NCBI GenBank assembly: GCA_964612665.1 | Contig: CAZTCI010000001.1 | Coordinates: forward strand, 636,896-700,895 | DNA length: 64,000 bases | Origin: an uncultured Planctomycetales bacterium | GTDB lineage: Bacteria > Omnitrophota > Gorgyraeia > Zapsychrales > JAHFFX01 | Direction: 5' to 3' | Shown here: positions 12,001 to 36,000 of the stretch, one piece after another | Numbering within the stretch: the first letter of the stretch is position 1 | Layout: the number at the start of each line of letters is the position of its first letter | Notes under the pieces: model-generated | Database searches by the model: none | The model's input: the letters and a program-made list of their open reading frames with translations, nothing else | Told to the model about the DNA's origin: nothing | Program-made: the position numbers and the translations under genes

Positions 12001-15000
12001 TTTCAAAGATAGCCAGCCAATCGACAGGCAAGATCATCATTAAAACAGATAACACTGCAAATATAATTCCCATAATATCCAGTGGCGAAAGGAGGTTTAA
12101 CTTTTGGCCAGGATCTTTATTCCCGTCCTTCTTCTTTTCCTTTTTAGCTTTATCTTTTGCTATGTTCGCCTGTAAACGATCCCAACGGAATTTCCATGCT
12201 TTATAATCTGGATGATCTTCTGGATTAATTTCTTTTTCTCTATACTCATAATGTGTCTCATCCATATAAGAGCCTCCTATATATGGAATTCTTTCCGTTA
12301 TCTTTCTCATGGCTTCATATTCCCTTTTCAATCGCATTCGCTGTAAATCAAGTGGTGTTATTCTTTCATATATCAATGGCTTAAAAAAGCCAAACCAAAG
12401 CGTCGCACCTACCGCCCAGACAAAAAGTATAATAAACGGCCATGCACCAGGCGAAACAAATGCAACAAAACGTTCCAAAATGCCAGCTAAATCCCAGGGT
12501 AACAAAAATAATCCAAAGATTGACCACGAGAGAATAATCAGCATAATGTGTCCCTCACGAGATATTTTTCCTGATCGTGATCTAATTATGTTCCAAAGAC
12601 CAATCCCCAATCGGTTAAAACGCTGAACAAAAGTATTAAATAAGTTCCACATATCTCTCCAAAGATTAAGTTCTTTTGGATCTTCTCTCCAATAGATAAA
12701 TCGATAAAGATCTTCAAACGTTAACCTCAATACGAAACCGACATTACTTAAGCCGTGCCTAAACAAATAGCCAGTCACGATAGCCGTGACAATACCACTG
12801 AAAATATTGTAGAAAGGTACTCCAAAGAATTTTAACAATGCCATCACCGGAATCATGAAAATAAGTATTGTGAATTTATTACTTCTTAAAATTATCTGTA
12901 TAAATGCATCTACGTTTCTATAACCATTTCTTGCCACTCTTAATAATAATAAAAGTTTACGATCCATCTTGACTGCATAGTGCCATATTAAAGCAACGGT
13001 AGCTAAAACCGTCCAAACGATATCGGCTGGTAAATTTAAGGCTTTCAAAATTAAGAGAATAATGACAATAATTGGTAAAAGGCGGATTTCTCTGCGTCTT
13101 CCATACGCTTCACTTAACTTCATGCCATTTAGCAAAGGTTTCTGTACAAAAACTTTATTCCATAAAGTTTCTCTCAATCGGCTCGGATGTATTAAATCAG
13201 ATCTATTGAGGCTAGTTGCCCATATATCTTGCAAATTGCGTAATCTATATTGTTTAGTAAATGCGCCGTATGGCATAGTACCCGTCAAGAAAGAAAGCGC
13301 CGCTAAAAGATATGGTAATGTAATAACTGGTCCCCAAGAAGTCGTAGCGAAGAAGGAGACGATCCATGAAATGATCATCAAAAATGCTACTGTACCATTA
13401 AACGGAAATGGGGTGCTAAAAGGATTGTTCAAAATTTGGTTCAAGATGATAAGGCTAAAGCCAATACCCATGGTAACCAGAGGGCCAAGATAAACTGGCC
13501 ATATAATAAATCTTACCAATAATCCACCAACAAAGATAATCCAACCAAACCACCGAGCGATTCGAATAGCAGTGGGATTATTCAAAATACGGCTAAAAAT
13601 AATCAGACCGAGACCAAAAACTATTACAATCAACAGGCTCGGATTAAATGGCCATATAATAAAGCTTAATAATAATCCCCCAATTAAGCTCATCCAACCA
13701 AGCCAGTTAATCATCCGCGTACGAGAATTATTCCAATTCCAAATCCGGCTAAAGATAATAAGAGCAACTCCAAAATCAATTATAAATATAGGTGCAAATT
13801 TGAACGGCCACATGCCAAATCCTAAGAACGCACCAATGAAAATTGTCCAGCCAGCCCAACGGGCAATCTGAGCCGCTAATGGTGACCTTGATACTTTAAA
13901 TTCCAAGTACATGGTTTCTTGATATCTCTCCCTTGTATTTCTCTTAGTTAATAAAGAATCTTTTACTGTCGGAATAAATTTAAACTTTTCGTTAGCTGCC
14001 AGTAAAATCGCTCTCGGGAAGCTAACAATTAACGTTACATAGAAATTAAATCCTTTACGTATATCATTTAAAGTTAAGGCTATGGCTTTATAGATACTTC
14101 CTTCTTCTCTTAAATGACGCAAGAAATCATTAGCGTTAATGGCCTGCATCAAGAATGTACTTAAGACAGTGAAGACCAATACAGATTGTAAATAAGCAAA
14201 TGAACTATAAGGTGCGCCGGCCGGAAGCAGAATACCTAAAGCTAAAGCAAATATAGAAGAGAAATAATGGAGGAATAAGAAGATATGAGATAACTTTACA
14301 TCGTATCCTATTTTATCATTATAGAATAATTGATACTGCCCACGATCCATCATAAAACGAGTTACGTTAAAGGCATAACGTTGCTCTGTTGCATAAATTG
14401 ATTCCGCGAGTAACGATGGACGACCCCACTCAAAAGCCATCCAGTCAATCTGAGTTGATGTTACAAAGGGATGACGGCTCTGCAAAGATAAAAATGCTGC
14501 CGAATCTTCGCCGGGTGGAGAAAGCATCGTATCGCCAGCTGCTGGTGTTATTAATGCTTTACCGTAAAATGTCAAAAGACCTCGGCGGCCACGCTGTACA
14601 TCAGAAGTGAAGGTTTCCTGAGAAACTTTATAAAGGGCAGTAACTGGGAATGCATCTGTGGCTGAATCCCAAATGCGCATCATTGGATTGATAACCATAA
14701 TTTCAGGATTTCTTCCCACAAAACTGGCCCAAATTGGACGCCAAATATTTTGACCTGGATAAGTGCGAACATGAGCATCGTAATTGGCTGAACGGCCATA
14801 GGTCAACCACAAGTTAGTCCCAATACCACCGTTTTTATTTAAAGGAATTGGATTATCATTTTCTTTCCACCAATCCGTCGTATCTGGTTTCCGCATATAG
14901 AATGGTAAATAGACATTAGTAATGTCTGTCTTATGAATAACGGTTGAAATCTTAACCAAATTATCCCAATTGGGAAGTTTTCCGCGCACTTTTAAAATCG

Positions 15001-18000
15001 AAGCATAATTTTGTGAACGAAATTCCAGAACGACGCGGGCTGTATCGATCAAATTTTCTGATTCAACATAATTGTTCCCTTTATCATCCGTTTTTAATAA
15101 TCCTTTGGATTGGAACGCTGCACGGAATTGTTGAATAAGATATGCTTCTTCGGCGTTAAGTTTCCTCATATCAGCATTAATGATTCCATTCAAAATCTTA
15201 AAGCGGTAATGCCGCTCAGGGGTACGGTCGACAAATTGTCCCCAAATAGTTGCGTCTTGATAAATTGATCGCAATTTCAATAAGACCCGCTGCTTGTAGA
15301 CCAAGTATTTATCTAAGAAATCTGGTTTCAAAAAGCTGTCTGTTAACTTTTGAGCTTGATCCCGATAAGCTTCTTCCAAAGATGTATATAACTCTGATAA
15401 ATATCGAACAGCCTTATGATAGCTATAATCGCTAAATTGAGATGCAATCATTAAATGATAAACAATCTGATCATGGGCCATGTTCTCAACCACTTTATAA
15501 TTCGATGGACGAGACTCATTAAGAAATCCTTCCATTGCAGAAACAATCTCCATTTTATCTTCAGGGGTTAGATACCAATGATTTTCAAAAATAATTTTAT
15601 TAAAATCGGTAGTTTCATGAGCCCCGCGCAATTCTTCAACCACCGCATTAAATCTTTCTCCTTTTTGTCTTAACAAGGCAAGCGTATTGTCATATTGTGG
15701 TTTATGCGTTATCGCCATATATCCTAACAGAGAAACTTTCTTAGAAATTGGATCAATAGTTCTCTTATCTTTTATCTGCAGAGGATCAAACGAACCGGGT
15801 TGAGCAATAATCTCATAAGAGTATACAAAGGTTTCATCGGTCGTCTGGACATGCGTTGAAGTTCCTTGCAAATGCTCAAACACATCCATCATTGGTTTCT
15901 TCTGGCTAAAGGTATAGAAGGTCGTATACAAGAATTCTCGACCGAGGGCAGATTCGGGAATCACAAACTTATGTGCCTGAGGATTTTCGATGGCCAGGAG
16001 GATTTCATTAATTTCTGCACTGCTTATAACACCCGATTTATATCTTTCAAGAAATATCCGACGGAATTTCTGTTTAACCGTTTCTCCACTAGGTAATGGT
16101 AGACCATATTCTTTTTCAACCTTTAAGAATTCTTTATACCAACGTGTATAGAAGGATTCCCATCTACCTTTTTGCCAGAAAAGAATCCGTGCTATTGTCT
16201 TATTTCTTATTAAGCCTAACCTTATTAAAGAACGCCAGCTGATCAAGCTCCGGCCTGTTCTGCTCCAAGTGTTTACAACAGAAAGAATGTAGCTCTTAAT
16301 TACCACTGCAAAATGATAAATCGACATCAATGTTGGTAAAGCGCTTAATGACCAAATAGCAAACGTAATCCAGAAACCTAATGAACCAAATTGAATAACA
16401 TCGAACTTCCAGAAAAGATAATGTGGTAAAACACCAAAAACGTACAATGACGTTATCGTAAAGACTGATATCCAAAGTACTCTTTCTGAGAAATATCTAA
16501 CCTGGCCGTATAGTAAAACCGGTAAGATAATTGATAACGAAAAGATTGCCATTCCTACTGCTAAGTATGGCTTCACAATACCAATGTATAAGCCTATTCC
16601 GATGCCAAGAACCATCAAGGATATAACGTTGACCAGCCTAATTCCGCTTTCAATTCCCCAGAAGGCCCGCTTTATGAACATAAAGAAAATTCTAGAATAC
16701 ACATGCACAAGACCTCTCCAACCTTCAGTTCTTCTATCAAACCACGCCGCCCATGGAGAATGTTGTGCTGCTAATCTTAGGGTCAATGTTTTAAAGGGAT
16801 TCAAGAATCGTATAATATCAACTTCATTTTCTGCGTTTGCATAAGCTCTTCCACCAATAGCTCTGTATAGTCTTTCCAAGTCTTCGGAAGTACGATCATT
16901 GTTATAAAATGCTTTGCTAAGATCATTGAAATAATCAAAATGCCATTTTACGGCCTCTGATACCTTGGCAAATTTCATATTCTGTTCACCTAAAAATTCA
17001 TCATTTTCCTCTAATGTCTCATGCGTATAATTCTCATAAACAACTGTTAAAAGATTTTCCCATTCATTAAGGCCTTGTTCGTGGTCCATTTCCGACAACA
17101 TACTTATCAAATCATTAAAATCGAGATCTGAAAATATTTCTATTAACCTTTGAAGAGGCTGGAATTCACCTTGATTTTGAGGTTGAGTAATCCACCACAA
17201 TAAGCCTGGCATTCTGCCAAACTTTACAACACCGTCATTAGGGTTCTTATATTTCTCTTCATACCAATCATTGAGCCAGAAAAGATGCGTCCAAATTTCA
17301 GCATGCATCTTAATTCGTTGCATGACTTTTCTCGAAATCTCATCAAAAGCAATTCCCTGTTGTCTACCTTCATTAATGTAGTAGGCAGCCTCGCGTGCAG
17401 CAAAAACCGCTACAGGGAACATGGTCGCAATTCCTCCCATCGAATAGCCTTTTGTTTCAGAAGGCGCAAGCTGAGTAAATCTATGAAGAACAATTTCGAG
17501 CATGGTGGTTGGTTCAACACTTCTTGCAATTGGATAAGGATTAACTTCTACATTATCATTGTTCGAAATTTGCGCTGGTTGGATATACAAGAAGCGATAC
17601 ACTTCACTTACAATACTTTCAAAGAGCCGATCTAAAATTTCTTGATTAATTTGAGCGCCGATCCCCGTATGAACAATTCTCAAAAATTCTTCAAACTGTG
17701 GACGAATTATCTGATTAATTAATACTTCTCCTACAAACTCTCGGAAAGCTGCGCTGTCCCCTGTTTTTTCAATATATTCTTGAGCTAGATCTGCCAGAAA
17801 CTCTTCAGGGTTATTTGTGTTCAGAAGGTTTGTCTGAAGAATAAAGGATAGAATTTTTACTCCAGGTGTGGGCAAGAAATTCCGCACGGCTTCTAACCCG
17901 CCTTCTTGAGTTACAATTCTGGTAAGAAGTTCTCGGTCGGCTGCAGCCAAAACTAAATCTTTAAGCTGGTTCCAGAAATTAGCGCCCTCTGGTTCTTCTA

Positions 18001-21000
18001 TTTGCGGAATAATATTTCTCAAAATGTCATCAGCTGACACAAAACCGTGTTCAATCAAATACTGTACTACCATCGCTTTTGAGTAATGCTGTCTAGATGC
18101 GGCCTCAATTTGCGGTAATATTGGCTGTGAAATTTGAATATCTGGTGCCGGTATCTGATAACGTGGTTCATAATTCTCCTCTTCAAAGACTACTCTATTT
18201 TGAATCGTCAATCGAACAATCACTTCAATCTCTTCGGGAGTTAGTTCGATAAAGTAATTAGTAAGCGCATTTCTCTGTTGTTGTGAATTTAAATGCTTTG
18301 GTAAGACAAAATTGCTAGAAAGTTCTTTATGCATTAGTATTTTATTTGCTAAAACTTCTGCACTAGAACGATTAACTTGTGTACTTAGAATATTGCTTAA
18401 ACGTTCAAACCGCATTTTTACTGAATTGACGTTTCTTGTATGAATAATTACGGAGGCTAAGGTTGGCCTTCTTAATACAAAGGTAGCAAATATATTAACT
18501 AAAGTAATAATAGAGCTCAGGAACGAGAGGCTAAGGATTGATAAAGTCGAAATAAGCCAGAAATTAAAGAAGAAGTAACCATCGTATTCAATCTCAAAAG
18601 GATTACGGAAGAACAATCTTATGTAATCGACATAAATATCTTTAGTCAATGGGAGGCCATTTCTTAAATTCACATTGAATCTATTGGTCTCCGTTGTGTT
18701 CTTGGCCGTCTGAGCAACCATGTCTGCAACTCGGTCGAGGCTAATTCTATCTTTAACAAATTGACCTCCGATAAATAATCCATAAATATATCCTGGGATT
18801 CCATTTCTGAGTTTGTCCGGATTGGTGTAGTCATATACATTCAAACGGACAAAATCTCCCTCCAGAATCGCAAATAATTCATTATTACGAATAACTCGAT
18901 GTACTGGTTTAGTAATTGGTGTTGGCGAGTAGATATCTTCCGAATTGATCAAATATAAGTCACCGTTTTCACGGTAAACATTAGTTGAGAACAGACTGTA
19001 AAGATATTCTTTGGGTTTATTTTCTCCGACAAAAGGATATTGCAAATTACTTTGGACACCGCGCCAGCCTAGAGGAATCCGGGTTAGCCCTAGAGGGAAA
19101 TCCTCACGTGTATAAAGTTTAAATTCTTCTTTAACATAATGTTCGAAAACAATGCCAGTTCTATAATTGAATCCTAAAAAGATATCTCTTCCACCTGTAA
19201 ATTCGACCCCATCACGATATTCATATAAGACCCTATAAATATATTCATTCTCAGCTTTATTGTGTTGTACAAACTCCGTCTCTCTTAAAATACGGCCAAG
19301 TTTATTGGACACTGCGACTTCACCTGAAGCAATACCAACTGGCTGATTCTTTTGTTCGTATTGTATAAACCGAGTAAGACCTCTTGTTTCTTTAACATAG
19401 TAACGTGATAATGGATCATTAGCACCCAAATAACGAGTTTGCATTAAGACTTGTTTAGTCTCATCCTGGTTAACGAGTAAATAGCTGTTGATCTTCGCTA
19501 ACTTTGTTTCATGTAGAAGCGCTATATTTTTATTAATCAACGTCTTTTGGAGATTCTTATCGTATTGTTTAATTAAAGAGTTTGGCTCAACATTAGAATC
19601 TACAGTTTCCTGTTTAAACATGATGCCTAAATAGGAGAACTCATAACCCATTTGAGCATTCTGTCCTTCCCATTTAACGTTAATAACTGCATTTTGTTCA
19701 ACATTGCTTGAAACGAAAATTAAAACGCGGGCCAAAGGATCTTCAGTAATACGGAAGAAGAAGACCGTTCCGTCGTCCTTGGTTTCAGTTCGGGCTTTAA
19801 TGACTTTAATATCTCTTGGCAAGTTAGCAGAAATAGCAATTTCGCGTATGCCTTCAACTAATTTTTCAGTCGCTTTTGCCCGAAGCACATCACCCTGAAT
19901 GAAATTGAGGTCTTCGATGATTTCTTTTACTTCTGGACCATTATCACCAAAATGAATTGAAAATTCTTTCTCATCATAAGCTTCTTTAAAGATGTCTTTA
20001 GATTCATCAAAAATGTAAGTATCTTTTTCTTTTCTTGCTTGGAAAGTCAAACGATCTGCTTTGCCGTCCCCAACTTTGGCCTCTTGAGACAAAACTTCAA
20101 TGAAATAATTGTCAGATAAATTATCTTTATCGATACTAGCCATTAATTCTTGGCCTTCATAGGCACGAGATTTCTTTAAAGTTCCGTTAGGCAGAATTTC
20201 ATCAATAACCGTCCACGCTTCATTGTTGACTTTGGCATTAGTATTAACGGAATATCCGTAAACACCTAAATCAGTTAAAATTGTGTAATAGCCATTAATA
20301 TTACGGAAATAATAAATCGAACTGACTAATTCCTCTCCAGAATAACCTCGAATCTTATTAATTTCTGGTGATAAGCTACCAGCTGCTTTCTTAGTTTTAT
20401 CAATAACAACTACGCGACCATCTACAGTTTCTTCATGACCTGAGATCTGCAGTTTTTCACGACCCAAGACTGGATAGAATCTTAAGCCTTCTTCTCCCGT
20501 CAATGGATTAATACCAAAAACTCGTTCCAAATTACCTAAACGTAATGTCTTATCTGCAACCAGAATAGTTTCTCCTGTCATTTTTTCGTTACTTGACACT
20601 TCAGCTAAACTATGACGTTCGACAATATTAAACTTCTTACCTAAAACTTCCTGAGTACCAACGACTCTTGAAATAGCAATTGGATAAATAGTTAATGAAG
20701 GTTCTTTTTGTTTTCTCAAAAAGTCTTCTAGTTTATAAATACGAGATTCGCTTGGACTTACTAAAAGTTCGGCCTCAGCTTTGGAGAAATCACCTCGCAG
20801 ATAAATGCGCGCTTCAGTTACTTTATCAAAACCTTTGACTTCATATTTAGTCACCTCTTTTATCTTACGATACATATCCCGTGGCAATGTCTTCAATTCA
20901 TCCAAGGTCACATAAAAGCCTTGACCATTCTGAAGTACAACTAAAAAGCGTTCGGATCGGATCGTCTCCATAATTTCCTCACCGCTGGCACCAGGAAGGA

Positions 21001-24000
21001 GTGGATTAGCCTTGCTCAATTCGACATCCGAGGTCAATAATGGTAAGTATCCAATCGGTGGCTCATAGGTAAAGATGATTTCCTCACCATCATCAAATCT
21101 TCGATTATTATTAATGTCTTTAAAGAATGGATAACCTTCACCCGGCTTTTCAATATGGCTATAGTGGATATATTCTCCTTTATAACCACCCATACTTACC
21201 ATTTGGGTAAGAATTTCTTTGGTAGCCGGCTGGTTACGTAAAGCATGCGATTTCTTTGCCAAGGTCAAAGGTCTCGCCACGACAGGCTTGCCATTATATT
21301 TTAATTCGGTCGATTCAAACTGTTTATCATTTTGCATCATAACGACAAAGCCTGCCAAATGAATGTCGACAGGAACTTCGTCATAGAGCATTGATACATT
21401 GTCCGGCAGACCGTTAAAGCCCTTTGAAGTTTCATAGTCAAATAATTTCCATTGATATTTGCCCATCTCTTCAACAATATGGACAAAACCATTGGTAAGA
21501 TTAACCTTTTCTAAAAGAACTTCTTGGGTCAGAGGAACATTACTATTGTCGAAATGGATGGTGCCCAAATCACCGGCTAATTGCTCAGGCTTCAATAGAC
21601 TCAACATATAGTTAAATGCTTCTTTAGTGAAATCTAAAGCACCGCTCACATAAGTGCCATCTGGCAATCTGTACTTAGTGGATTGCCACGCTAAACGCAT
21701 GATTCCCTGTGCGTCTTTCACAGGGACGACACTTAAATTAGTACCTTCTCGTTCAAAGAGCATATCTTCGATCATCTTATTGGTAACTGGTAAGCCACCT
21801 TTTTCCTTGGTACGAAAGACTCCAAGTTTATATTCGGCTTCAATTGTTTTCACTAATTTCTCACCCTTAGTACCGATTTCGAGAACCGCATCAGTAATTT
21901 TTTCGCCATTAGGCATTGTAAATTCTTTCACAATCAAATAGTAATCTTGTGCACTAGTAGGCGTAATGATTCCTGGCTTGAGAATACCAACAATATAGCC
22001 ACGGCTACGATCCACCAAACTCCTCAACATCTCCTCCGTCAAAATATACGTTCCATACTTAGTATGAATCGCGCCGTAGCCGATGAATTTGGAATCTAAC
22101 ACAAGGCCTTCTTGGTTCATCATTTCATAAACAGGGAGATAAAGGGATTGCTTTTCGGCGTCACCCATATAGAGTGCTTTTAAGGCCTTCATGATGACTG
22201 TTGCTTTTGATCCCAGCTCGAGGTCTGTGTTTGCATTGATTTCACCGGTGGGCAATGAGAAGCCCATCGCTGTTTGTAATTTATAATCTTCTTCATTAAG
22301 CGGGTTATCGACTCGAGCAACGCCCGTCATGTTGATATGGCCATTAGCCAAATGCAAAAGTTGATTGCGGAAGATATCGTTAGAAATAAAGACAGTCCCA
22401 TGGTCCGGATAAATCAGACCATTGCCGATAAATTCTTTTGGAATGCTTACGCCCGCTTCAGCGGCTTTCTTCTCGGCTTCAGCTTCGCCAAGATTTAATG
22501 CGCGGATGACTGCGAGCACTTTTGTGGATTGCGCGTGTTCGCCTATTTCGAGCACGGCCCCTTTCTTAACAGTCAGCTTGTCGCTGAGATTAATGTCTTG
22601 GGTTGTCAACAGCATGAATATGATTTTTTCTTCGGGATTATTTGGATCTTTCTTGGCTAATGGTTTACCTTTGAGGTAGATCAATCCTTCCTTAAGATTA
22701 ATAATGCTGCTTAACTGATCTTTTGATAAGAAAAATGACCCTTCGTTGCTGCGGAAAATGGCGCCGCCGAAATATTTCTCATCCATTCTAATATTAAGCG
22801 CCGCTAATTGCTGACGTGCGGCTTCTTCGCCGAAAACAAAGTCAGTGACAGAATCCAAAACTTGTTTTGAATAAGCGCCTACTTCTACTGATTTCACCAT
22901 CTCAGGTGATAATTCAACACCGCCGATTTTTAACTTACGGACTGTGAGAAGTTTGAAGATATCCTTTCCTTCCTTCGTCTTAAGCGGCAAGATTTCACCC
23001 TTGAGATAAATGACTCCGAGATCCAAATCTACAATTTGGGCTAACACAAAGCTGCGTGGTATAAAGAAGCTTCCTTTGTCGCTGTGAACAACGCCTCCGC
23101 CGATGAATTCTTTCGGCAAGCTCATGCCAATTTTCTTATAATCAAATTTAGCTTGGGCCTCTTTGTCGTCCATGTACAGCGCCTTCAACGCATCCAAAAT
23201 CTCAGCCGACTTGCTACCAACTTCATATGTCGAACCCTCAGGCACCTCTGCACCATCGAAGGTGATCGCCTGTGTCGTATAAAGTTTATAAATAGTTTTG
23301 CCATTTTCTTTCATCTCTGAACCGTCCGGGTTCTTAAGCGCCTCGCCTCTCAGATAGATGCCCTGGTTCAAATTGATGAGCTTCGTTCTCACTGCGTCAA
23401 TTGGTGCAAAGAACGCACCTTTCGCCGTATGGAAGATCCCGCCGCCAATAAATCTCTCGTCGATATGGATACCTAACGCCTTGGCTTTCTCAGCGGCTTG
23501 GTCCGGTGACAGAGTCGCGTTGGCTTCGCTCAGACTAAAGATTTGAGCAAACAGGTTACGAACGACTTCGCCTTGGGCGAATGAGGCCGGTTGAGTTTGG
23601 TTGATCGCGAGTGCATTAAGAATTTCTAAGACTTCGCTCACCTCATGTCCTGGCATGAGGACAGCGTGTTCAGGAATTTCAATGTCGCCAACTTTGATCG
23701 CGCGGGTTGTATAAAGCGTATAGATTGGTTTACCTTGCGCGTCATATTTGCCGCTTTCTTCACCAGTAACGAAGATCACCGGAGCATGACTTAAATCAGT
23801 TAATTTTTCTATGAAGGCTTGTTTAGGCAAAAAGATATCACCGATCGAGCTGCTCAACAGCGCCCCGCCGATGAATTGGTCAAACTCCGGCGGCAGGGTG
23901 ATACCGCTTAAAATCTTTTCAGCTTCTTCGCGGCTGGGCAGTTCGAGATCTTTTAGAATGTCGTCGGAGACATTCAGCATCTTTGATTTGATTGAGGAAG

Positions 24001-27000
24001 CGATATCGGCGGTGCGTTTGCCCATTTCAACAATGCCGCCGGCTGGGATGGTCATCTGATCGTCGATCTTAATATCTTCTAATGTCAGAAGCATCGGCTT
24101 CGTCGGGTCTTGGCCAGGGACTTTGACAGTGCGCAATTTGATACGGCCGTTCTTTAAATCCACAATATGGTCTAACAAGCGCTGCGTTGTTAAGAAGAAT
24201 GATCCTTGGCCGCCTTTGGTATCGTGGATATAACCGCTGCCAATCAATTCTTCTGGTATATTCAAGCCAATGGCTTTTTCTTTCTCGAGGTCGCGGTCTT
24301 TAGAATCCATAACAGCGGCATCGATGACAGTAAGGACTTCATCACCTTTCTTCGTCGCCTCAAAGACAGAACCAGCTGGGATCTTTTCGGTATCGCTGTA
24401 AGGAATATCCAAGGCCACGCGCATCTTGAAGAGTTCTTTGCCTTTTTCATTTTGCTTGTGAAGATCATCGCCGAGTAAATTCTTGCGCTGATGGGCCATG
24501 TCCAAAATGCCTGAGCTTAACATCTTCGGCTCGATGACAAACATACCTTCGGTATCGCTGTAGGCGAAGCCAGCGGCGTTGTCTTTCAAGTTCTTCATAA
24601 ACGCTTTGCCTTTATCACCGTAAACGATGTCCGATTTCTCGAGCAGTTTGCCGTCTAATTTCAAATTGACTGCAAAATTACGGTACAACGATTTATCGCC
24701 CAGGTCAGCGCCAATCATCGTACCGGCCAAATGACCGTTACGGCGAAAGGCCAGGTCTGCCAATGTCTTTTCATCTTTGATCTTGAATCGGCCTTCTTTA
24801 GGATTGTTCGCAATCAAGAACGATTCTTTCTGAGCTGCCTTTTCAATTTCTTTCATGATCTTTAAACCTTCGAGACCCAATTCCAACGGCACGTTGTTAA
24901 GTATTTTGCCGTTGTAATTGAAATCTTTAACGACCATGTTGAGTCTGCCTTTGGCTTGAACGGTGCCGAAGCGGCCGGCTTTTCCTTCATCGAGAAGATG
25001 AAGTATTTCTGAGGGCAAAGTGATCGGCTGGGCAAAGCGGATAACGCCAGGGCCGGTCACAAATTTAAGTTCGCGTTCGTTGGCGGCCTTGCTTCCTTCA
25101 ACCACAATCGGATAAGTACTATTAAGCCCGACCTTGGCGGTATCTTCAGGCAAGATGACCATCGTGTTGCCTTTGACATCACTCAATTTCTTTAAGAAGC
25201 TCTTGCCGTTTTCGGTCATCAATCGGATGAAGTAACCGCCGGTGCCGTTATTCGTTTCTGGCATAAAGATGATGCCGGCTTTCTTGAGGTCTTGAGGTTC
25301 GATATGACGAAGGACCTTGACGTATTGTTGAGCGGCCGCAAAGGTCATCTTCTTCGACGGTGTTTTATCAAAGTAGATGCCAAGCCCTAACGAATCCTCA
25401 TCAAACAACGCGGCCATGGATTCTTTAATCGCACTCAAACTCCAGACAACCGTCTGCGGATTGGTGGTCAGTTGTGTTACATCCTGGGTGTAAGTTAAAA
25501 ATTCTTGCGGCAGCGCCGAGCGGAGATATTCGTTTTTGCCGGGCTCGCCGTAAATGCCTAAGAGTTCGCCGAATTTCTTGGTGAAATCGACGGGGATCTT
25601 GATTGCTTCTTTGAGATCCTCAATCTTGCCAAAGCTCTTACTTAATCCAATGCTTGGTCTCGCACCGGCGCTGGTCATTGCGGCTTTAAGATCAATGCCT
25701 GTGCCAAAGATGTCCTTTTTACCTAAAGCCACTAACGCTTGAATGACACCCTGCGGCGTGCGTTCAAATCCGATCTGCACATTTTCCATCGGGCTCACGC
25801 TCACACCGTAAGTCTGTGTACCATTGACAATCTTGTAGAAGGCGCCGATTGATTTGTCTTGGACCTTGTAATTGCCGGCGATACCGATGCGCCCATCGGT
25901 ACCAACCTCGGTTGAGACAAAAACAGGTCCAAGGTTCAAATCGGCGCCTAATGAAGCAAACTGGCTGGATTGAGTTCCGGCGAAATCTTTGACACCGGCA
26001 AGTTCATTGTTGAATGAAAGTTTGAGAGTGAGTCTCTTGTTTTCGAGCGGATTGTTGATCGCGTCAAATTCGAAGCCGAACTTCTGGAAGCTGAAGGCAT
26101 CTTTGCTTAAGACCTTGATGCCCGTCGACGTCATTTGATTGTTTAAGATATCAAAGACTTTGACCTCGGTGCCTTTTTCTTCAGCGCCGGCGAACCCGCC
26201 TTCAACAAACACGCGGCTGCGGCTTTGAGCATCCAAACCAAAGCTTACAAAACCATCAACACCATATTGACGGCTGTCGCCCTGGCCCACGACTTGCTGC
26301 TGCAAGATTCCAGAAACAGCGGCGCGCAAGCGGCCATCGTGATAACCGATCGACGGAATAACGAGAAAATAATAACGTTCGACGGATTTACCGCCGTTTT
26401 CACTATTAGAATTCTGGGCGAAGTAACTGACTTGGCTGCCACCGAAGGCGACTTGACCGAGGAGTTTGTCCATGGATTCCGGCGTAGCGCGGATCGCGAC
26501 GAGACCGAAATGTTCAGACAATCCGCCGGGGATCGAGGCGACAACCGTGCCCCAATGAGCGGAGATCCAATCGTTAAATTCTTTGGCAAACTGGAAGGAA
26601 GATTTGACATCAAGCCCGGCTTTTTCATTCACGAAGGCAAATCCGCCTTGCGCGATATCGATTGTCTTATAATCGCTGACATTGATCAAGAGATCTTGAA
26701 CGCCGGCGCCGCGAATACCGACGGGCTTCCAAACTGGACCAACAGGCATGTATGCTGGAGGCGCGCGGGTCATTTGCGCAAAGTAAACATCCAAGCCATG
26801 CAAGATCTCTTCTTTCATTGGTCCAAGACCGGTGTTGCTTTGAACCAGTTTAAACATCTGCTCGCGTAACGCAGCCACTTCGCGGTTGACTGTCTTTGTC
26901 TGCTGCGGCACTTGCAAGACAATTGTGTTAACGTCTTTTTCCGCTTCATCCGCTTTGTTTTTGGCTTCGCGGATTTGGGTATTGATATCGATTTTCTTGA

Positions 27001-30000
27001 GGATGCCGGCATTCATTCCACCCAAGCCAGCCAAAGCACCGCGCAATGGCGTGCGGGCAAGCCCGACTCGGTTAGCGAGGTTCTTAATGGCTTGTTCTAA
27101 TGTCTGCTGTTCAAGATTGGCGCTCGTGATTGACAATTCTGTCGGTGCAACAAAGGCGTCGTTTTTGTTCAAGGCACTTAATTGCTGAACGATTTTGCGG
27201 CGTTCACCATAAACGTTTAATTCGGCATCACGCGCCGCGGCCTTACGGTTCACAATGTCGGTGACTGAGACGTGGGCTGGGTTGCCATTTTGGAAGGCAA
27301 CATCTGCTTCAACTTCTGGTTGAGCAAATTGAGTGATATAGTTGCGTTCCGTCACATTCAAGTTCTTGACATATTGGCCTAAGAGATCTTTGGCGGCCTG
27401 CGTTGTTCTCGGCGAATTAATGAGGTTCTGGACAAAAGCAACATCGCGGTCGATCTGGGCCAAGCGGGCGTTGAAGAAGTTACGAGCACTATCGGCGTTC
27501 TTCGACGGAACCAGAGGCAATTGCGCGAAGTTCGGCGCGGTTTGATTCAAAGCGAGATTGAGAACACTGCTCTTCGTTTCAATAAGCGCATTCATATCTT
27601 TTAAATTGTTAATCTTTTGTTGAAGGACATTTGCCGTTGTCTCATATACAACTGGGCCTTCTGGAACTCTTTGATAACCCATCTGGTCATCCAACAACCG
27701 TTGTTTAAGACGTTCGCTTAAATTGATTTCAGTTCTGACCGCCGCGAGCATACCCTGGGCAACTTGATGCCAGGCGTCTTGACCGCCGGACAAGGTGCTC
27801 TGCGTCTGCCAATAGTTTTCAGCGTCGTGTAATTGCGGAATATATGTATCGAAATACTTAAGTCCGGTGGTGATCTTTTCTTTCGATTCATAAAGATCCG
27901 AGAAATTCTTAGCATCCAATTTTGCCTGCAGATCTTTAATGGCTTGGCTGTTAGCTTCCGATAATTTGTTGTTGGCTTCAATGTCAGATGACTTAAATCC
28001 ATAAATGTCAGCGATCCTAACCTGACCCTCGCCGCTTAAAAGCGTTTTGCCGTTTGTGATGTCCTGGATCCGTTGAGTCAATCCTTGTTCAGCGTTAACG
28101 CCGAAGAATGGAATCGCGGCCTGGGCGGCGATTAATTCTTGCCGCAAGACTTTCTCAAACCCTTCTTTGGCGATCCGGTCGCGGATGGTTTTTTCATATT
28201 GATCATATGGAATGCCTTGTGCTTTAGCATTCAATCTTAATCTTCCTTCAATTAACGTGCGGGCATCCATACCAGCGAATTCTTCGATCGTCGAGGACAT
28301 GAGCTGCATCATGCCAGAGGAATATGTTCCGAAGGCGTCTTCTTTTTCCGGCGAATTCTTAAGCGTTTCGACCAATGCATTTTGTTCTTCATAATTATTC
28401 TGGCGGGCCTTCGCTGTCATATACATCACATTTAATTTATCTAATTCGCTGATCGTCTGCTTGATTGTGGCTTGAAGTTCGGCATTCTGTGAACCGCCTA
28501 ACGTCTCGGCGATGGCTTTGAGTTCTTCAAGCGTGCGGGCGCCCGCGATTTGGTCAACCAGTTTGCTCGCCGCTGTTTCAGCTTCAGGACTGATTGTCAC
28601 TTTAACTTTTGTTGAAACCGGCATTTCATTGACCAAGAACCGTGGTTCGCCAGTCACTTGGTCCGTTGTGAAACCATAAACGGTTTCGCCTGGATGGGTG
28701 GCTTCGTATTCAGCTGTTTCTTTAAAGAGGTTGCGGCTGCGGGCGGCGAGTTCAATAATACCGACTTCTTGACCAGCTTTAAGGCCGCGGCCTTTCATTA
28801 ACAACATCGTCGGAAGTTTACCTTCGGCGTTCTTGATTGGTTTTAACTGGAATACCTGGCCGTTCGGTAATTTCCAAGCCCGCGGGATTTCCATACCATT
28901 CGGCAGGTCACGTGTTGCGGCCTTGTAGACTTCTTCTTCACTGTAATAATACATTGAACCGATTTCAGGTTGAATTTCATGGGCGTAAGGCAAGCGGTCC
29001 GGTTTGGGCGCGAAGATACCGAATTCATTTTCTCCGACGAAGCGGCGGTTGGTCACAACTGGATAACCGCCGGGCAAGGTGTAGGTGCGGACTTTTTCAG
29101 TATCTTCAATAGAAACATCTTGGTCTTTTTCGAGAGGCGTATAAATGTTCTTGAGCGCGGCGGCATCTTTGAAGGCTGACGCGTTGGTCACAGGAACAAT
29201 GCGGCCAGGTTTGGTTGAGTTCTTTTCAAAGACCATCATCAAGCCTTCGATTTCCTCTGGATTCGCGACGTGTAAGAAGAGTCCTTCTATCGCTTTTGGC
29301 AAGCTATAAGTGATGATGCCTAAGACCGGTTTAGTTTGTTCAGCATCGTAATACCGGAGTGTCCAGCCTAACGCAACATCCGCCTCAGCCTTGCTTGCTG
29401 TCATCAAACTGCCATTTTTATATTCGGGCATTTCTTGTTTGGTCGCTGCTGGCATGCGTTGACCTTCATAAATTGTTCCACCCTGAACGATCATATTCGT
29501 CAGCGGATCTGTGACCTGGGCTTGGATCCGGCGGCCTTCGTGATCAACGCCGAGGACATTTTCCAATTGTTGTTGCAAGTCTTCTAAGATTGCGGCAGTT
29601 GGTTGAATGTACACTTGGCCTTTTTCCATCCAGAAGGCTTTCAGTTTTGGATTCTTTTCATCGTGTGTGGCTTCCCAAATCAATTCGCGGCCGTTTTGAT
29701 CTTCGATAAACCGGCGGGAAGTAAAGGCCAGATAAGCGCCTTCTTTGCCATTGGTTTCTTTCAATTTATTAATGTCAAATATATAACCGCGGGCAAATTC
29801 GTCGTCGGAGACGCTTTCATGCTCGCCTTTCTCATTGATGATATCAATCATTTGATCGCCATTGCCTCTCATCACGAGATAGAGGATATTTTTATCTTTA
29901 TTTAAAGCCGCTTCACGGGCAAACAGTAATTCATATAAGCCAGGCACCGGAACGCCAGGATATTTATGTTGCCAGAATTTGACAACGTCTTCGTGTTTGA

Positions 30001-33000
30001 TCAAGTCTTTGAGGAACGGAACCTTGCCGAGTGTTGAATCAATAATCGTTGTGGACACATCATTCAACGCCTTGGCCGGCATGAATTGACGATAATTGCC
30101 GACGTTATAGCGTTCTTTAAATTCATCCTTAGTCAATGGTTTGCCATTTTTATCCATTGGCGCATTGGCGTGGAATTTATCTTGACCCAAGACAAGTGAA
30201 ATTGGGAATGGCAAGCTGTTGGTTTCCCAAACACCACCTTGACGTTCAGAGTCTATATCAGGATTCAATAAGACATTGGAAAGTTCGATCAATTGATTAA
30301 TTAATTCGACTAGACCTAATGCACCGCTGGCCGCTGTGCCCGGTGAACTGTTCAAAAGATTATTAATAATCTTCTCAGCGCCGACGCCCAGATTCAAACT
30401 CTGCAGAATACCAGCCGCTTTATGGTTAATATTAAAGTTCACCGCAATCGGGAAGCCGCCGAAGTTGGCCAATTGAATCGACATTAAATTATGGACCATC
30501 GTTGAGAATGGACCGAAACCGACGCCCGCAGTCACAAGACCTTCACCGGAAGATTTTGATTTCACTTGTTCATTAAGTTGTTCGACGAGTTTCTTGGCGA
30601 CTTCCGGCGTTGACATGTAAGCAATCGCCGGCGGAACGGCGAAGGCGCGCAAGCTGGCTTGAATGATCCCTTCGAATGCTTCAGCTTGTTTCTTAGCGAG
30701 GTCTTCGGGCGATGGGCCTTGCATCAGCGCTTCGATGCGTTTCTTATCTTCTTCAGCGTCGTGGCGGGTCTTTTCTAAGGCTTTCTGCGCTTTGATAATG
30801 GCTTCTTTTCTGTTTTCTAATTCAACGCTATTGAATTTATCTTGTAATTGGTCAAGACGCTGATTGAGCGCAGTTTGTTCTTTTTCAACTGTCTTCTCAT
30901 GTGCGGCCGTCGGATAATGACCAGCCAACCATTCCGGATTGGTATAGCGGTCAAATTCATCATGCAAGAGTTTGGCCAACACGTTTTCGGCATCAACGAT
31001 ATCTACGAGAACAGTCTTCTGGTCTTTGTCTTTAACTTCATTTAATTTTTGTTCGATCTCTCGGGTGATATCTTGTTGCTGCCAGAAGTTGATCAACTTG
31101 TCTTGTTGTCCCATCAGTTTCGCCATGCGGATATCGCGGTAATCTTGCAAGGCTTGCGGTTCGCCAGCGAAAACATCTTCAGCAACGTCTTTGTCCTTCA
31201 ATAATTCGGCCATCTTCTTGCGGGCATCCAGAAGCGTCACTTTCTCGACGGTAGTGGCAGCCGAAGCCGCTGTTTCTGGAGCTTTCTCTTCAATCTCTTC
31301 ACCGGAGGCGACTTTGAAATATTCATCAACGCGGTTTGTACGGTGCGCAATCGTAGGCATGACAAGCGCCATCTTATAAGCATCTTTACCCATGACTTTG
31401 GCAAGGTTCTTAATGAGATTGAAGCTCACCTGGTCAGTTAAATCTTCGCCGTTATGCGTATCACTGTAAGCCACAACCAGGATGACTGCATCATGGGTGC
31501 CCTTGAGAGCTGTTGTGTCGACTTCTTCAGGGACCGCCATACTGATACCTTCTGGGCTGACTCTGACGAATCCGTTACCCGACGGCAATACAAAGAAGCT
31601 TTCTTCAAGACCTTCCCAGGCCATTTGCTTGACAGCTTGGACCACGACGACATCTTTGCCCTGCGCTTTAAGATCAGCCACTTTCTCCTCGGTTGTGCGG
31701 GTGTCAACCGGTTCAGCATAACGTCCGACGGGTATTGAAGCAAATTTAAGCGGCACGTTAATATTCAAGGAAGCCGCAATGATGTTTTGAACATAAACTC
31801 GTGGTTTCTGGATAATGGTCTTTCCTCTAAACTCAGTGACTAATGTCTCCGGAATATAATTGTATGCTGGACCGGTCATATAAGTGGAAACCGCCAGTTT
31901 AATCACCTCAATAGGTGAAGCTTCACCACGCAAGGAGAGTAAACTCTTTTCAGCCAGTCTTAAACGATCTGCGAATATATTTGAGCCCACAAAAACGTTT
32001 CGAAGCGGATTAAAGGCCTCATCAAATGACCAACCGGCCGGAGCGAAATCTTTCCAAGTGCCTTTGGTAATCTGCATTAAGCCGCGCGCGCCCGTCGGAC
32101 TTACGGCATTGACAACAAAATCACTCTCATACTTGATTAACGCTAACATCAATCGTTTGAAATCTTCCGCATTCTTGAGATATTTCTGAACGATGGCGTC
32201 GTGTTCGAATACTTCCTGCATTAATGGCAGGACATCGGCTGGCACGCGTTTGGCCAGGTCAGCAAAGGCGAAGGCATTTTCGGTTTTGATCTCCGGATGC
32301 AACGCTTGTTGATATGTATCCATAACTTCTTTCGATTCGGCCAATGCTTCCGGCGTGCGGGCCGCTTCAACACGGGCAGCAGATTCTTTCTTCTTGTAAT
32401 CTTCTTCATAATCTTTCATGAACTTATCGAACTCTGTCTTGCGTTCAAGATGATTGACCAAGCCGCTAATATCGATCTGCGACGGCAGAAGTAATTTTGT
32501 CATCGGATTAATGCCGGTCGATGCAACAAATTTATCGTGGAGCGTCTTAAAGATTTGTTTGAACTCACCGCTCGTAATATCTTCCGGCGCGACCAGCATG
32601 ATCGCGGCTTCCATCGGTTTAGCCTGATTGAGAATCTCTTTCAAACTTTCAGGCAATGCCGCGGTCACTTCAATAATGTCCTGACGGCTGTTTTCAACAA
32701 ACTTCTTGCTTTCCTCGACGCGGGTATGCTGGGCAGCGGCGGTTTCTTTAGCTTTATTCAAAACAACTTCAGCATCATGCACAGCTTTTTCTTTCGGTGA
32801 CGGCAATGATTCGCCAGCGGCGGCCTTAAAGGCCTCTAACGCTTCGTCATACGCCTTTTGCGCTTTGGCCTGTTCCTCGTCGGCCTTGACGGCTTCTTTG
32901 GCGAGGATTTCAGCGGTATTTTGAATTGTTTCCAACGCCTTATCTTTAGTTGTTAATTGATAGTATTTATTTTTCTCAGGACTAAAGATGACCGCCGACC

Positions 33001-36000
33001 GGCCGCTGAAGTTGATAATCCACGGCAACACCGCTTCACCTTTGGCTTGAAGCAACGCGGCTTCTTTAATTACATTATTCATCGTTGCAACCTGGCCTGG
33101 AATGCCGAGGGCTTTTTTCATGGATTCAAAATATTCCGGTGAGGTCTTTGATAATTCAACCAAGAATTCTTCCATTTCTACCATGTTTTCAGTATTGACC
33201 TTGCTGACAACCGGTGTAAACCCTTCGACTTGGTTTAATAAATCAATCGCCCGGTGAATTTTCATCTGGGCGGTTGTTTTGTAAATCTGGCTAAACTCGC
33301 TAAAGCTGACTGGCTCCGAAACGCCTTTGTCCGTCGCGTAATCATAGTAATCTGAAGTTTTGGTTGCAACGTGAAGTTCAACCGCGTTGCGGCCGGTCAG
33401 TTTTTCATAAGCGATCTGAGTGATCTTTGATTCATGTGCTAATAATTCTTTACCCGTATGGGCTTTATAATAATCACCGACGGAGTTATCAACACTATTC
33501 AATAAATGACGCCCGATGTTAATCAACCCGTTATCGCCTTCCAGAGATTGAACGGCTGGACCAAAACCAATACTCTCTCCCATGTGAACGGCGCCCGCAA
33601 TTTCGAGACCAATCGTTGACAATCCAATCGCGCCCGACCAGAAGGTGATCTTCAAACGTCCTAAGGTTTCAAAGAATTTCTCTTGCCGTCTATGCGCTCG
33701 GCCTTGGATACCGGCTAACTTCGAAAGCAAGTGAATCGGCACGAAGATATTGGCATAGAACAACAGAACCGCCGGAATCGCCCACGCCAAACGCACAGCC
33801 CATTTCTTAAAGAACCGGCCGCCCATTTGTTCTTTAAGGATATTTTCCAGCGAGCGGTTTTCAGTATAGAGATAACCAGTTTGGTAAGCTTGCTTGATGT
33901 TCTCATCTTTCATCCAGTTAACGTTGATTTCTTTTCCGCCGAGGATATTCTTTTCCAAAGACAATGTTTTTAAACTCAACCGTTCAGTTGAAGCGAAGCG
34001 ATAATCGATCAAACTGTGGATAATTGTTTTAACCTGACGGGCCGTTTGCATGAGGAAGTTCAATACAAAGATGTAAGCAATACCGGTTATCTTCGAAGTA
34101 TAGAACCATACAAAAATAGGTGTCAGATAAGGGCTCAACGCATTTAATACGAAAACTGGCAACAGATGAACAACACCCCAACCCATTAAATTCCCGACGA
34201 TAATAAAGCCTTTCTCAATGATTCGGAAAAGAACATACAACGGCGCAACCACCCAGCCCAACATAGTTCCTTGAAGGGCGGCGATCTCAGCCATTACAAT
34301 CGGCGTTAAGATGGCGCTGTAGATCGCCATCGCAATTCTAGATTTAAGAAGTTTGATAGTTCCGTAAACGATCGGATGACGCAAGCCCAATCTAAAGAGC
34401 ATCTTCGCGGGTTTGTCGAGGAGCGGTGCGGCCTTCTCATCTTGCAACGCTGCCTGCATGGCCAGGACCTCCACACGACCGATCGCTGAACCTTCTTCAA
34501 CGCTATGCAAGAATTTGATGATCTGATTGTCCGCTGATCCGAAGAACAGGTATAAAGCGCGCAATAAGAACCAGCCAAAGCCAAAAGGCAAGGCCACCGT
34601 CTTCACGACGGCATTAATCAATTTGTTACCCACATTAAAGTAATTAGTGAAGAATTGCGCAGCGGTGAAGGCATCCTCAATGGCCTGGACGAATTCTTCG
34701 GCGACGCCAATCATAAGGACTTTTGCCCTGAGCCACAACACGCTGAATTGGAAGCGGCCGACGTATTTCGTCGTTTGCGCAGCCCTCGATTGTTGTTCAT
34801 TATTTTGTAGAGGTGAAGCTAAGGCGAATTTATGGAAGAGATAATTGCTGTAGAGTTTCTTTAAAGATTTTTCATTAGCGCTTTGGGCAATCGATTGAAT
34901 TCTTTGTTTGAGTGTTTCATCCGGAACTCCGGCAGCGATGGCTTCTAACCGGCCGCGGATTGTTTCCGCTGTCAAATCAACCGTCCGAATACCGCCCTTA
35001 AAGTTATGGACCATGCTGACCATCAAAGCACGGATCGCCAAACCAAAGACCGTCCAAGCCGCCAAGGCTGTCCATATATAACCAACTGGAATTAACTCGC
35101 TGATGGCTGGGAAGACTAATGATAACCCTACCATAGTAACTGCGGCGGCGATAGCTTTCACCGTCGGTCCAGCGCGATTGAGCCCAGCTGACTTGAGGTA
35201 TCTAGTGAACAAAGTTGCGACTGCGCCAATGGCTAAAAGAATTAACCCGACAGCCTCACTTACACCATTGAGTTTGGATCCAGATGTTTTTTCAACTGTC
35301 GGATGTGAAATCTTTGTTTTTAGATCAACGACGGCATAGTAACCATTTTGAGTAAATTCATACCCGAACCCTTGACCTTCTTGCTGCATTTGAATGAATG
35401 ACTTTTCAAAGAATTCTTTGGCTGTTGGCGTTTCTATAGCAAAATGCACTTCTTCAAATCCGCGCTGGGCCAGCCAATGTAAAATGACGACCAAGAAAGG
35501 ATAGGAATAAACGCCCCGGGCGGTGTTGATCGTATTGAGCAACATTCTAACTACTTTGCTGAAGGCCAAAATGGTAATGTTGTTATAAGCCATCGGTAAA
35601 TGCGGTCCAACAAAATCACGCGACGGCAACTGGCTCAAACGAATTCTAGCCTTAAACCGGCTTGCGCTAACTTTTAAAGCTTGGTAATGGATGTCTGAGC
35701 CGCGGCCATTAAATTGTCCCAAATCTTTCATCTCTGAACCAAACGCCACACGACCAAACTTGGTCAACAGATTTCCATTATTATCAATGTAACCGTTTGC
35801 AACCAAAACTTCCCAAAGTTTATCTATGTCAATGTTGCTTATTTGACCAAGGTTTGTTTTCGTTAAAGGTTTCCCTGCTTTGGATTCTTCTATTTTGATC
35901 CGGCCGGCATCGGGAATGGCAGCCTTTACAATGCTATTAGGGTTGCTGGCGAGTAATTCTTTAAAGAATTCTTCTGCCTGTTCCTTTTCATTAGCGCCGT

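Follow-up and report, generated by a model that had tools for sequence, protein, structure and literature searches.

The window analysed here, a stretch of 64,000 nucleotides from contig CAZTCI010000001.1 of an uncultured bacterium of the Omnitrophota, raises the question of what the domain is that recurs in tandem within the single giant protein encoded on it, and what a run of such domains could do there. An earlier reading of this sequence (the original prediction) had described an array of at least seven copies of an unrecognized domain, characterized by the string FIGGG, and had suggested a stalk, spacer or binding module. Our analysis confirms the array as real and far above chance, and shows that it consists of eight diverged units (Table 1). 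The window is a fragment of a giant gene, since one frame of its minus strand (2..64000; 21,333 codons) is free of stops and leaves the window at both ends, which makes 21,333 amino acids (aa) a lower bound for the protein; the other two minus-strand frames contain 1,224 and 1,713 stops. Residue i of this giant frame begins at window position 64000-3(i-1). The window holds no other open reading frame (ORF) of at least 230 aa, a listing with translation table 11 yielding short ORFs only, and those on the plus strand within the array, antisense to the giant frame, are taken as chance. Neither Rfam families nor tRNAs were found within the 64-kb window.

An array of eight diverged units

With unit 4 alone as the query (aa 13508-13628), phmmer recovered the seven other, adjacent copies at E-values of 2.5e-15 to 3e-3, and iterated profiles converged on eight units, with no others in the 21,333 aa. 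When each unit was scored with a hidden Markov model (HMM) profile of the other seven, every unit reached 32-97 bits, against at most 10.2 bits for the best of 1,000 shuffled sequences. The tandem array is, therefore, borne out, with a count of eight instead of at least seven. The motif after which it had been described holds in a relaxed form: the literal string FIGGG occurs only twice, whereas the degenerate pattern [FYLI][FI]GX[GA]XX[HYRSN]X(2,8)GX[FYVI][FIV] matches seven of the eight units but no other site in the 21,333-aa sequence (mean of 0.04 matches in 200 shuffles). Unit 1, the most degenerate copy, lacks the Gly-rich motif (AAGFAYSDTEGMFV) and is homologous by profile. The periodicity that had been noticed is visible as the recurring motif in the translated interval, and in a self-BLAST of the giant frame the array is the only strong soluble internal repeat.

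The bounds and the unit size required correction. The interval first assigned to the array (21950-25200) cuts off the last 156 nucleotides of unit 8 and adds some 600 nucleotides (aa 12934-13134) without a significant unit, and the units measure 107-114 aa, not the ~110-125 aa first estimated, with a start-to-start spacing of 108-145 aa. On either side of the array (535 aa before it, 531 aa after it) hhalign detected no significant unit, and two candidate additional, degenerate units (aa ~13025-13056 and ~14396-14425) were dropped because they were not significant.

Pairwise identity among the eight units is only 16-38%, and neither Tandem Repeats Finder nor a seed-based repeat finder detected a repeat at the DNA level between positions 21000 and 26000. 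Because the DNA-level repeat is gone and the array has kept its position in a relative with just 22-30% identity (see below), the view that the duplications are old, earlier proposed from the nucleotide divergence of the copies, is supported by the sequence comparisons. That the array is an artefact of compositional bias, of chance recurrence of the motif or of a non-coding frame has a practically negligible probability: nothing but the low pairwise identity of the units speaks for it, and it is refuted by the phmmer search, the leave-one-out scores (at most 10 bits for shuffles) and the match of an independent database protein to the unit profile at E 3.4e-33, besides a frame without stops over 64 kb.

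No catalogued family could be assigned to the unit. Pfam-A gave no family on the 935-aa array at E<=1, and when 16 units were scanned singly at E<=10 it returned five different one-off families, of which the best had an E-value of 0.018 and none was recurrent. Big, Ig and cadherin families were absent from both the array and the single-unit scans, and even at E<=10 Pfam placed no carbohydrate-binding module (CBM), LysM, SPOR, peptidoglycan (PG)-binding, Cache or PAS family on the units. NCBIfam had no match for the repeat unit at E<=1, and the unit profile had none among PDB sequences at E<=10. Structural searches with Foldseek were equally negative: a model of unit 4 gave no significant match in PDB (best E 0.64, template modelling (TM) score <=0.27) or in BFVD (best E 0.21, none at E<=0.001), and the best PDB match of a three-unit model (E 0.075) was also insignificant. 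These HMM, profile and Foldseek searches agree with the original prediction, which did not recognize the family, and as far as we searched the unit would represent an undescribed domain family, matched by no catalogued family or solved structure.

Unit 4, which is closest to the consensus, was used for modelling. With the eight units as alignment, AlphaFold2 predicted an alpha/beta fold with a mean predicted local distance difference test (pLDDT) value of 84 and a predicted TM score (pTM) of 0.70, and a single unit is thus predicted to fold on its own. The model contains strands at 14-18, 21-25, 43-47, 64-68, 72-74, 77-79 and 84-87 and helices at 27-34, 89-102 and 106-110. The first two strands form a hairpin that bears FIGGGIFH...GAFF, strand 43-47 corresponds to IYLRG, and strand 84-87 to YEVG. 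The general plan of a unit is, therefore, a beta-hairpin with x-G-x-G-h-h-[H/Y]...G-x-F-F, a short helix and a strand with G-x-I-Y-L-K-G, followed by four further short strands ending in h-x-E-x-G and a helix pair leading into the next unit. A model of three units, based on a three-row alignment, has low confidence (pLDDT 63.5, pTM 0.57) and its packing geometry cannot be read, but it shows the same order of secondary structure in all three units, and according to DSSP the helix pair closes each unit in both models. In an alignment of 16 units taken from four proteins, conservation falls mostly on Gly and on hydrophobic positions of the core; the partly conserved polar positions are the His/Tyr after the Gly motif, a Thr, and the Glu in h-x-E-x-G.

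Rarity of the unit and conservation of its context

The repeat family is very rare. A search of 1.84 billion cluster representatives with the unit profile returned six proteins, of which four (P0001, P0002, P0003 and P0004) are real relatives, all of them fragments and all singletons. The other two, with Ig-like repeats (P0005) and low-complexity repeats (P0006), were rejected as sums of many weak stretches. A long identical stretch common to P0001 and P0002 suggests that the two are overlapping pieces of a single gene; the first unit of both is collinear with unit 7 (BLAST). P0003 (MCK5644141.1), a fragment of 618 aa, has three clear units plus a fourth, weaker one and is labelled as belonging to a metagenome-assembled genome (MAG) of the Gammaproteobacteria. 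Its contig is 1.9 kb long, and the label could reflect faulty binning and need not mean that the domain occurs outside the Omnitrophota. P0001 and P0002 are likewise on short contigs, and P0004 is on a 41-kb JGI metagenome contig. A word-indexed protein search with the array and the 16-unit alignment as queries had no match, even though the four relatives exist in its 50%-representative library. No related loci were found in a scan of GTDB representative genomes, JGI metagenomes and IMG/VR, and tblastn of the array against phage and plasmid collections also had no match.

The 41-kb contig (Ga0216254_1000323, JGI 3300021153; L001 in Table 1) makes it possible to compare the surroundings of the array. 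Over positions 1-27338, three long ORFs follow one another on the plus strand, each in a frame of its own (3-9950, 9890-17335 and 17215-27324), with the first two split at a gap of 10 Ns; the contig is probably a single giant gene that the assembly has broken up. The source gene caller had put small minus-strand genes over the third of these ORFs. L001 is collinear with the giant frame at 22-30% identity, with three strong and several degenerate units. P0002 aligns in one piece, at 30% identity, to aa 13872-14302, i.e., units 7 and 8 plus the downstream flank. Because the order is collinear in L001 and partly in P0002, the array is, judged from these alignments, a retained part of a cassette that comprises the SLT lytic transglycosylase domain, a region of ~1,240 aa, the array and a downstream module, with a varying number of units. 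The ~1,240-aa region (aa 11925-13163) has no Pfam or NCBIfam match. For the flank of the array, a single named relative was recovered, VD883_01900 (P0007; E 1.1e-33), a partial hypothetical protein from a Candidatus Omnitrophota MAG.

Table 1. Features of the giant frame, with the collinear segments of contig L001 at the end. Residues refer to the giant frame.
Feature	Residues	Window position	Strand	Evidence
Repeat array, eight tandem units	13135-14069 (935 aa)	21794-24598	-	phmmer, iterated profiles, leave-one-out HMM, motif scan
Unit 1	13135-13242	24275..24598	-	Leave-one-out 39.7 bits vs <=8.5 for shuffles
Unit 2, motif LIGSGYIH...GSFF	13243-13353	23942..24274	-	54.0 bits, motif match
Unit 3, motif FIGGALLS...GDIF	13364-13477	23570..23911	-	50.6 bits, motif match
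Linker of 30 aa after unit 3	13478-13507	23480-23569	-	
Unit 4, motif FIGGGIFH...GAFF	13508-13621	23138..23479	-	96.9 bits
Unit 5, motif FIGGGVVH...GSFF	13623-13734	22799..23134	-	70.5 bits, motif match
Unit 6, motif YFGGAIFR...GSFF	13735-13848	22457..22798	-	81.8 bits, motif match
Unit 7, motif FIGNGLIY...GTVF	13849-13956	22133..22456	-	60.8 bits
Unit 8, motif FIGYGAIH...GTYI	13963-14069	21794..22114	-	32.3 bits, motif match
HATPase_c		53432-53722	-	Pfam, sub-threshold
GGDEF		49385-49711	-	Pfam, sub-threshold
Methyltransf_11, first	5574-5636	47093-47281	-	Pfam above cut-off
Peptidase_M50		39239-39934	-	Pfam, weak, sub-threshold
Last predicted transmembrane helix before the soluble segment	10069-10093	33722..33796	-	Closes the cluster aa 8859-10093
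Segment without transmembrane helices (~5,050 aa), holding SLT and array	10094-15142	18575..33721	-	Hydropathy
SLT lytic transglycosylase domain (PF01464)	10605-10699	31904..32188	-	E 4.6e-14, 52.4 bits vs cut-off 21.3
Unannotated conserved region that precedes the array and extends into it	11925-13163	24512..28228	-	
Downstream module, common to P0002 and P0004/L001	14211-14372	20885..21370	-	
Further downstream module, common to P0007	14649-14970	19091..20056	-	
First predicted transmembrane helices after the soluble segment	15143-15176	18473..18574	-	Hydropathy
Methyltransf_11, second	17919-17986		-	Pfam above cut-off
Peptidase_A8 (signal peptidase II, LspA-like)	18860-18992	7025-7423 (best stretch)	-	Two stretches, E 1.6e-13
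L001 ORF1 168-323, SLT domain	10579-10746			BLASTP collinearity
L001 ORF1 1670-2987, conserved region	11925-13163			BLASTP, 22% identity, 1,371 columns, E 3.6e-34
L001 ORF2 127-253, array	13248-13362			BLASTP collinearity
L001 ORF2 1210-1377, downstream module	14211-14372			BLASTP collinearity

Host protein and possible role of the array

A Kyte-Doolittle profile of the giant frame contains 70 overlapping windows of at least 1.7, which group into transmembrane clusters, aa 8859-10093 and aa 15143-21236. In the intervening segment, aa 10094-15142, no 19-residue window reaches 1.45, and both the SLT domain and the array are found there. The location assigned to the array by the original prediction, between the SLT domain and a polytopic membrane region, was thus correct. 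In the SLT domain the E-S, GLMQ and AYN motifs are intact ('KYESDF', 'GLMQ' and 'GPAYNY' at aa ~10622-10710). Murein, the substrate of SLT enzymes, lies outside the cytoplasmic membrane. The flanks of aa 15143-15176 contain two Lys and Arg residues on the side of the array versus four on the far side, a weak positive-inside signal. Because an SLT domain with intact motifs lies in the same helix-free segment and because of this Lys/Arg bias, we infer that the array would be located outside the cytoplasm. By contrast with this segment, aa 1-8858 (window 37427-64000) contain domains of cytoplasmic type (Methyltransf_11 and the sub-threshold GGDEF and HATPase_c) and no predicted transmembrane helix, which suggests that a very long cytoplasmic portion precedes the first membrane cluster.

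The host protein probably matches the 'Archaeovorin' or multi-enzyme type of giant Omnitrophota protein, because of its giant size, its many transmembrane helices, its scattered methyltransferase, peptidase and signalling-type domains and its SLT domain; judged from the sequence, an Omnitrophota origin is thus probable. Type II secretion-like loci have been reported beside genes for such proteins. Proteins of this type have been described as exceeding 30,000 aa, with many transmembrane helices, a divergent SecA_DEAD domain, scattered methyltransferase, peptidase, HATPase_c and GGDEF domains and occasionally SLT (10.1101/2023.11.21.568195; 10.64898/2026.06.07.730766). The numerous transmembrane helices and the scattered enzyme and signalling domains plus SLT are present here, GGDEF, HATPase_c and Peptidase_M50 being sub-threshold; Pfam found no SecA domain in the 21,333 aa of a gene fragment that is incomplete at both ends.

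With slightly less than even confidence, we tentatively favor the view that the array has an architectural, non-catalytic role, as a series of folded modules by which this part of the ectodomain is extended, spaced or stiffened, because there are eight copies, their conservation is of the core type, no enzyme signature is present and the position is retained in a distant relative. Conservation of Gly and hydrophobic residues is as expected for a structural module. The eight anciently duplicated alpha/beta modules of ~110 residues would form a chain on the extracytoplasmic side, and this chain would extend, stiffen or space part of the ectodomain and so position neighbouring modules, including the murein-cleaving SLT domain, relative either to the cell's own membrane or to the envelope of a target cell. 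What the analysis shows is the repeat, its rarity, the lack of a known family or PDB fold match, the predicted fold of a unit and the retained position in a distant relative; the lack of catalysis and the role as spacer or scaffold are, like the extracytoplasmic location, inferred. The broader suggestion of the original prediction, i.e., a stalk, spacer or binding module, is plausible; its grounds are the weak positive-inside signal and an SLT domain that shares the transmembrane-free segment and has kept its motifs.

Several observations weigh against such an architectural, extracytoplasmic role. The membrane cluster at aa 8859-10093 comprises ~10-12 helices, so that its parity is ambiguous, and the flanks of its last helix are balanced. 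P0007 has no unit in the 1,298 aa preceding the module that it shares with the giant frame, and the array is, therefore, not obligatory. The semi-conserved His/Tyr and Glu could form a binding or catalytic site, and enzyme domains are sometimes repeated in giant Omnitrophota proteins, with nine hexokinase domains as an example (10.64898/2026.06.07.730766). Finally, the confidence of the predicted three-unit model is too low to show how the units would pack.

In another reading, the units do not form separate modules but would build one continuous superhelix, with joined strands and external helix pairs. This would be the tubule of West-Roberts et al., an antiparallel beta-helix of ~1,500 aa that was predicted for Archaeovorin-type giants and carries paired alpha helices on its outside at regular intervals (10.1101/2023.11.21.568195, Fig. 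5A). We regard this reading as unlikely, attractive as it is. The sequence is unannotated and periodic, it is found in the same kind of protein, with an Archaeovorin-like repertoire (methyltransferase, peptidases, weak HATPase_c and GGDEF, SLT and many transmembrane helices), and the seven short, antiparallel strands of a unit, broken regularly by a helix pair, fit the published wording. The pTM of the three-unit model, given its mean pLDDT, is also above the expectation for three freely jointed domains. However, the single unit is predicted to fold confidently by itself, the array has 935 aa instead of ~1,500 and no significant flanking units, the three-unit geometry is too uncertain to be read, and the published tubule was compared here by its description.

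Alternatively, the units may together bind, in multivalent fashion, a polymer of the cell wall or a glycan of the surface (of prey, of a host, or the cell's own murein) and so tether the ectodomain and its SLT domain to this substrate, in the manner of carbohydrate-binding modules or PAS/Cache-type extracytoplasmic domains. To this, too, we attach a low probability. It would fit the intact-motif SLT in the same transmembrane-free segment, the collinear order kept in a distant relative, the fairly conserved polar positions (His/Tyr, Glu and Thr) and the literature, in which adhesion and cell-wall digestion have been proposed as roles of these giant proteins. Like PAS/Cache-type domains, the unit is a small alpha/beta domain with an antiparallel sheet and flanking helices and is presumed to lie outside the cytoplasm, and its sub-threshold Foldseek matches are recurrently to such domains (LuxQ, McpU, TlpQ and TlpA). 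All of these matches are, however, insignificant (E >=0.07, probability <=0.23, TM <=0.27), and the Pfam scans at E<=10 described above gave no CBM, LysM, SPOR, PG-binding, Cache or PAS family, so that the resemblance is a lead only.

That the array lies in the cytoplasm and serves, at the inner membrane face, as a scaffold or a platform for interactions, similar to what is predicted for 'TM-only' giants, is quite improbable. In its favor, the TM-only prediction, with most of the chain in the cytoplasm, applies to 46% of the long proteins of Omnitrophota (10.64898/2026.06.07.730766), and helix counts and flank charges leave the topology ambiguous. The other domains of the protein are, moreover, of cytoplasmic type (methyltransferase; weak GGDEF and HATPase_c), but these are located in another soluble segment, aa 1-8858, with a transmembrane cluster in between, whereas the SLT domain in the same unbroken soluble segment as the array would have no substrate in the cytoplasm and the charge bias at aa 15143-15176 points the opposite way. 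Even more remote is the idea of a small enzyme or catalytic domain present in eight copies: enzyme domains are sometimes repeated in these giants and the His/Tyr and Glu positions are semi-conserved, but His and Glu are each missing from several units, Gly and hydrophobic residues dominate the conserved positions, and neither sequence nor fold points to an enzyme family.

Some other properties of the giant frame were noted. Cys is nearly missing from it, with three in 21,333 residues (TGT 1, TGC 2) versus 236 Trp; the other two frames have 485 and 956 TGY codons. Cys is also low in the relatives (seven in the 9,168 aa of the L001 ORFs, none in the 1,656 aa of P0007), and both giant-gene papers make no mention of cysteine (10.1101/2023.11.21.568195; 10.64898/2026.06.07.730766). 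Third-position GC falls sharply from ~0.53 to ~0.32 and then returns to ~0.50 (window ~10,500-22,010, aa 13997-17832), with change points at aa ~13997, within unit 8, and at aa ~17833, while GC at codon positions 1 and 2 is nearly constant across this block. The presence, within a single ORF, of an 11.5-kb block that differs in codon usage is suggestive of a mosaic or recombinant origin. In the second membrane region, self-BLAST revealed duplications (window 11693-12547 and 13427-13897), with 36% identity between aa 17152-17280 and 17309-17436 and 40% between aa 16702-16755 and 16804-16858. The signal peptidase II-like Peptidase_A8 domain sits inside the giant polypeptide (window 2-7600).

Place among giant proteins and meaning of the array

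Giant proteins of Omnitrophota are known to be membrane-anchored and rich in tandem repeats that have decayed at the DNA level, sometimes together with SLT (10.1101/2023.11.21.568195; 10.64898/2026.06.07.730766). Like these scaffolds, the protein studied here is a very long membrane-anchored chain with a tandem domain, the architecture of which persists in the protein whereas the DNA repeat has decayed; sequence-unique relatives and an occasional SLT domain are further shared traits. Unlike them, it carries a unit without a Pfam or NCBIfam family, whereas the published repeats belong to Pfam families (TSP3, NHL, WD40, HEAT, TPR, lectin-like and dockerin), and with its four real matches in 1.84 billion cluster representatives this unit is extremely rare. 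We regard the array as a new domain family within a phenomenon already known, that of the diverged tandem repeats of giant Omnitrophota membrane proteins.

Another comparison is with the extender arrays of giant adhesins, such as SiiE, LapA and RTX adhesins of the MpIBP type, which consist of Pfam-recognized, all-beta Ig-like or Big domains. These modules are often Ca2+-dependent and often nearly identical in DNA. The array resembles them in having many tandem modules of ~100 aa between functional ends and in its presumed projecting or spacing role outside the cell. It differs in that the unit is alpha/beta with three helices, has no Pfam match and occurs in copies as different as noted above, and in that the host is a multi-pass membrane protein, whereas RTX adhesins are secreted. 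An identity of the unit as an Ig-like or Big-type extender was rejected, given the three helices and seven strands of the model and the lack of a Big, Ig or cadherin match in Pfam.

A more far-reaching interpretation, which we consider doubtful, is that the unit is a new fold exclusive to giant Omnitrophota-type proteins and that the eight copies form a defined extracellular superstructure. Such a superstructure could be the hollow beta-helical tubule of West-Roberts et al. or a multivalent cell-wall-binding rod, and would bring the SLT domain to the envelope of prey or host. In that case the unit profile would be the first sequence signature of this apparatus.

Unannotated repeats in proteins of this kind would not surprise a specialist, and if the array is merely a spacer it would be a routine entry among the domains of unknown function. 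If the fold proves to be new, one more domain family would be added, and if it is true that the unit is the repeat of the tubule, that predicted structure would gain a sequence signature. The giant proteins of Omnitrophota are mostly unannotated. The array is cleanly bounded, is predicted to fold with confidence, has an expressible size and keeps its position relative to the SLT domain; it therefore offers a tractable handle on a protein of more than 21,000 residues, and the profile of its unit can be used to map the module across giant genes.

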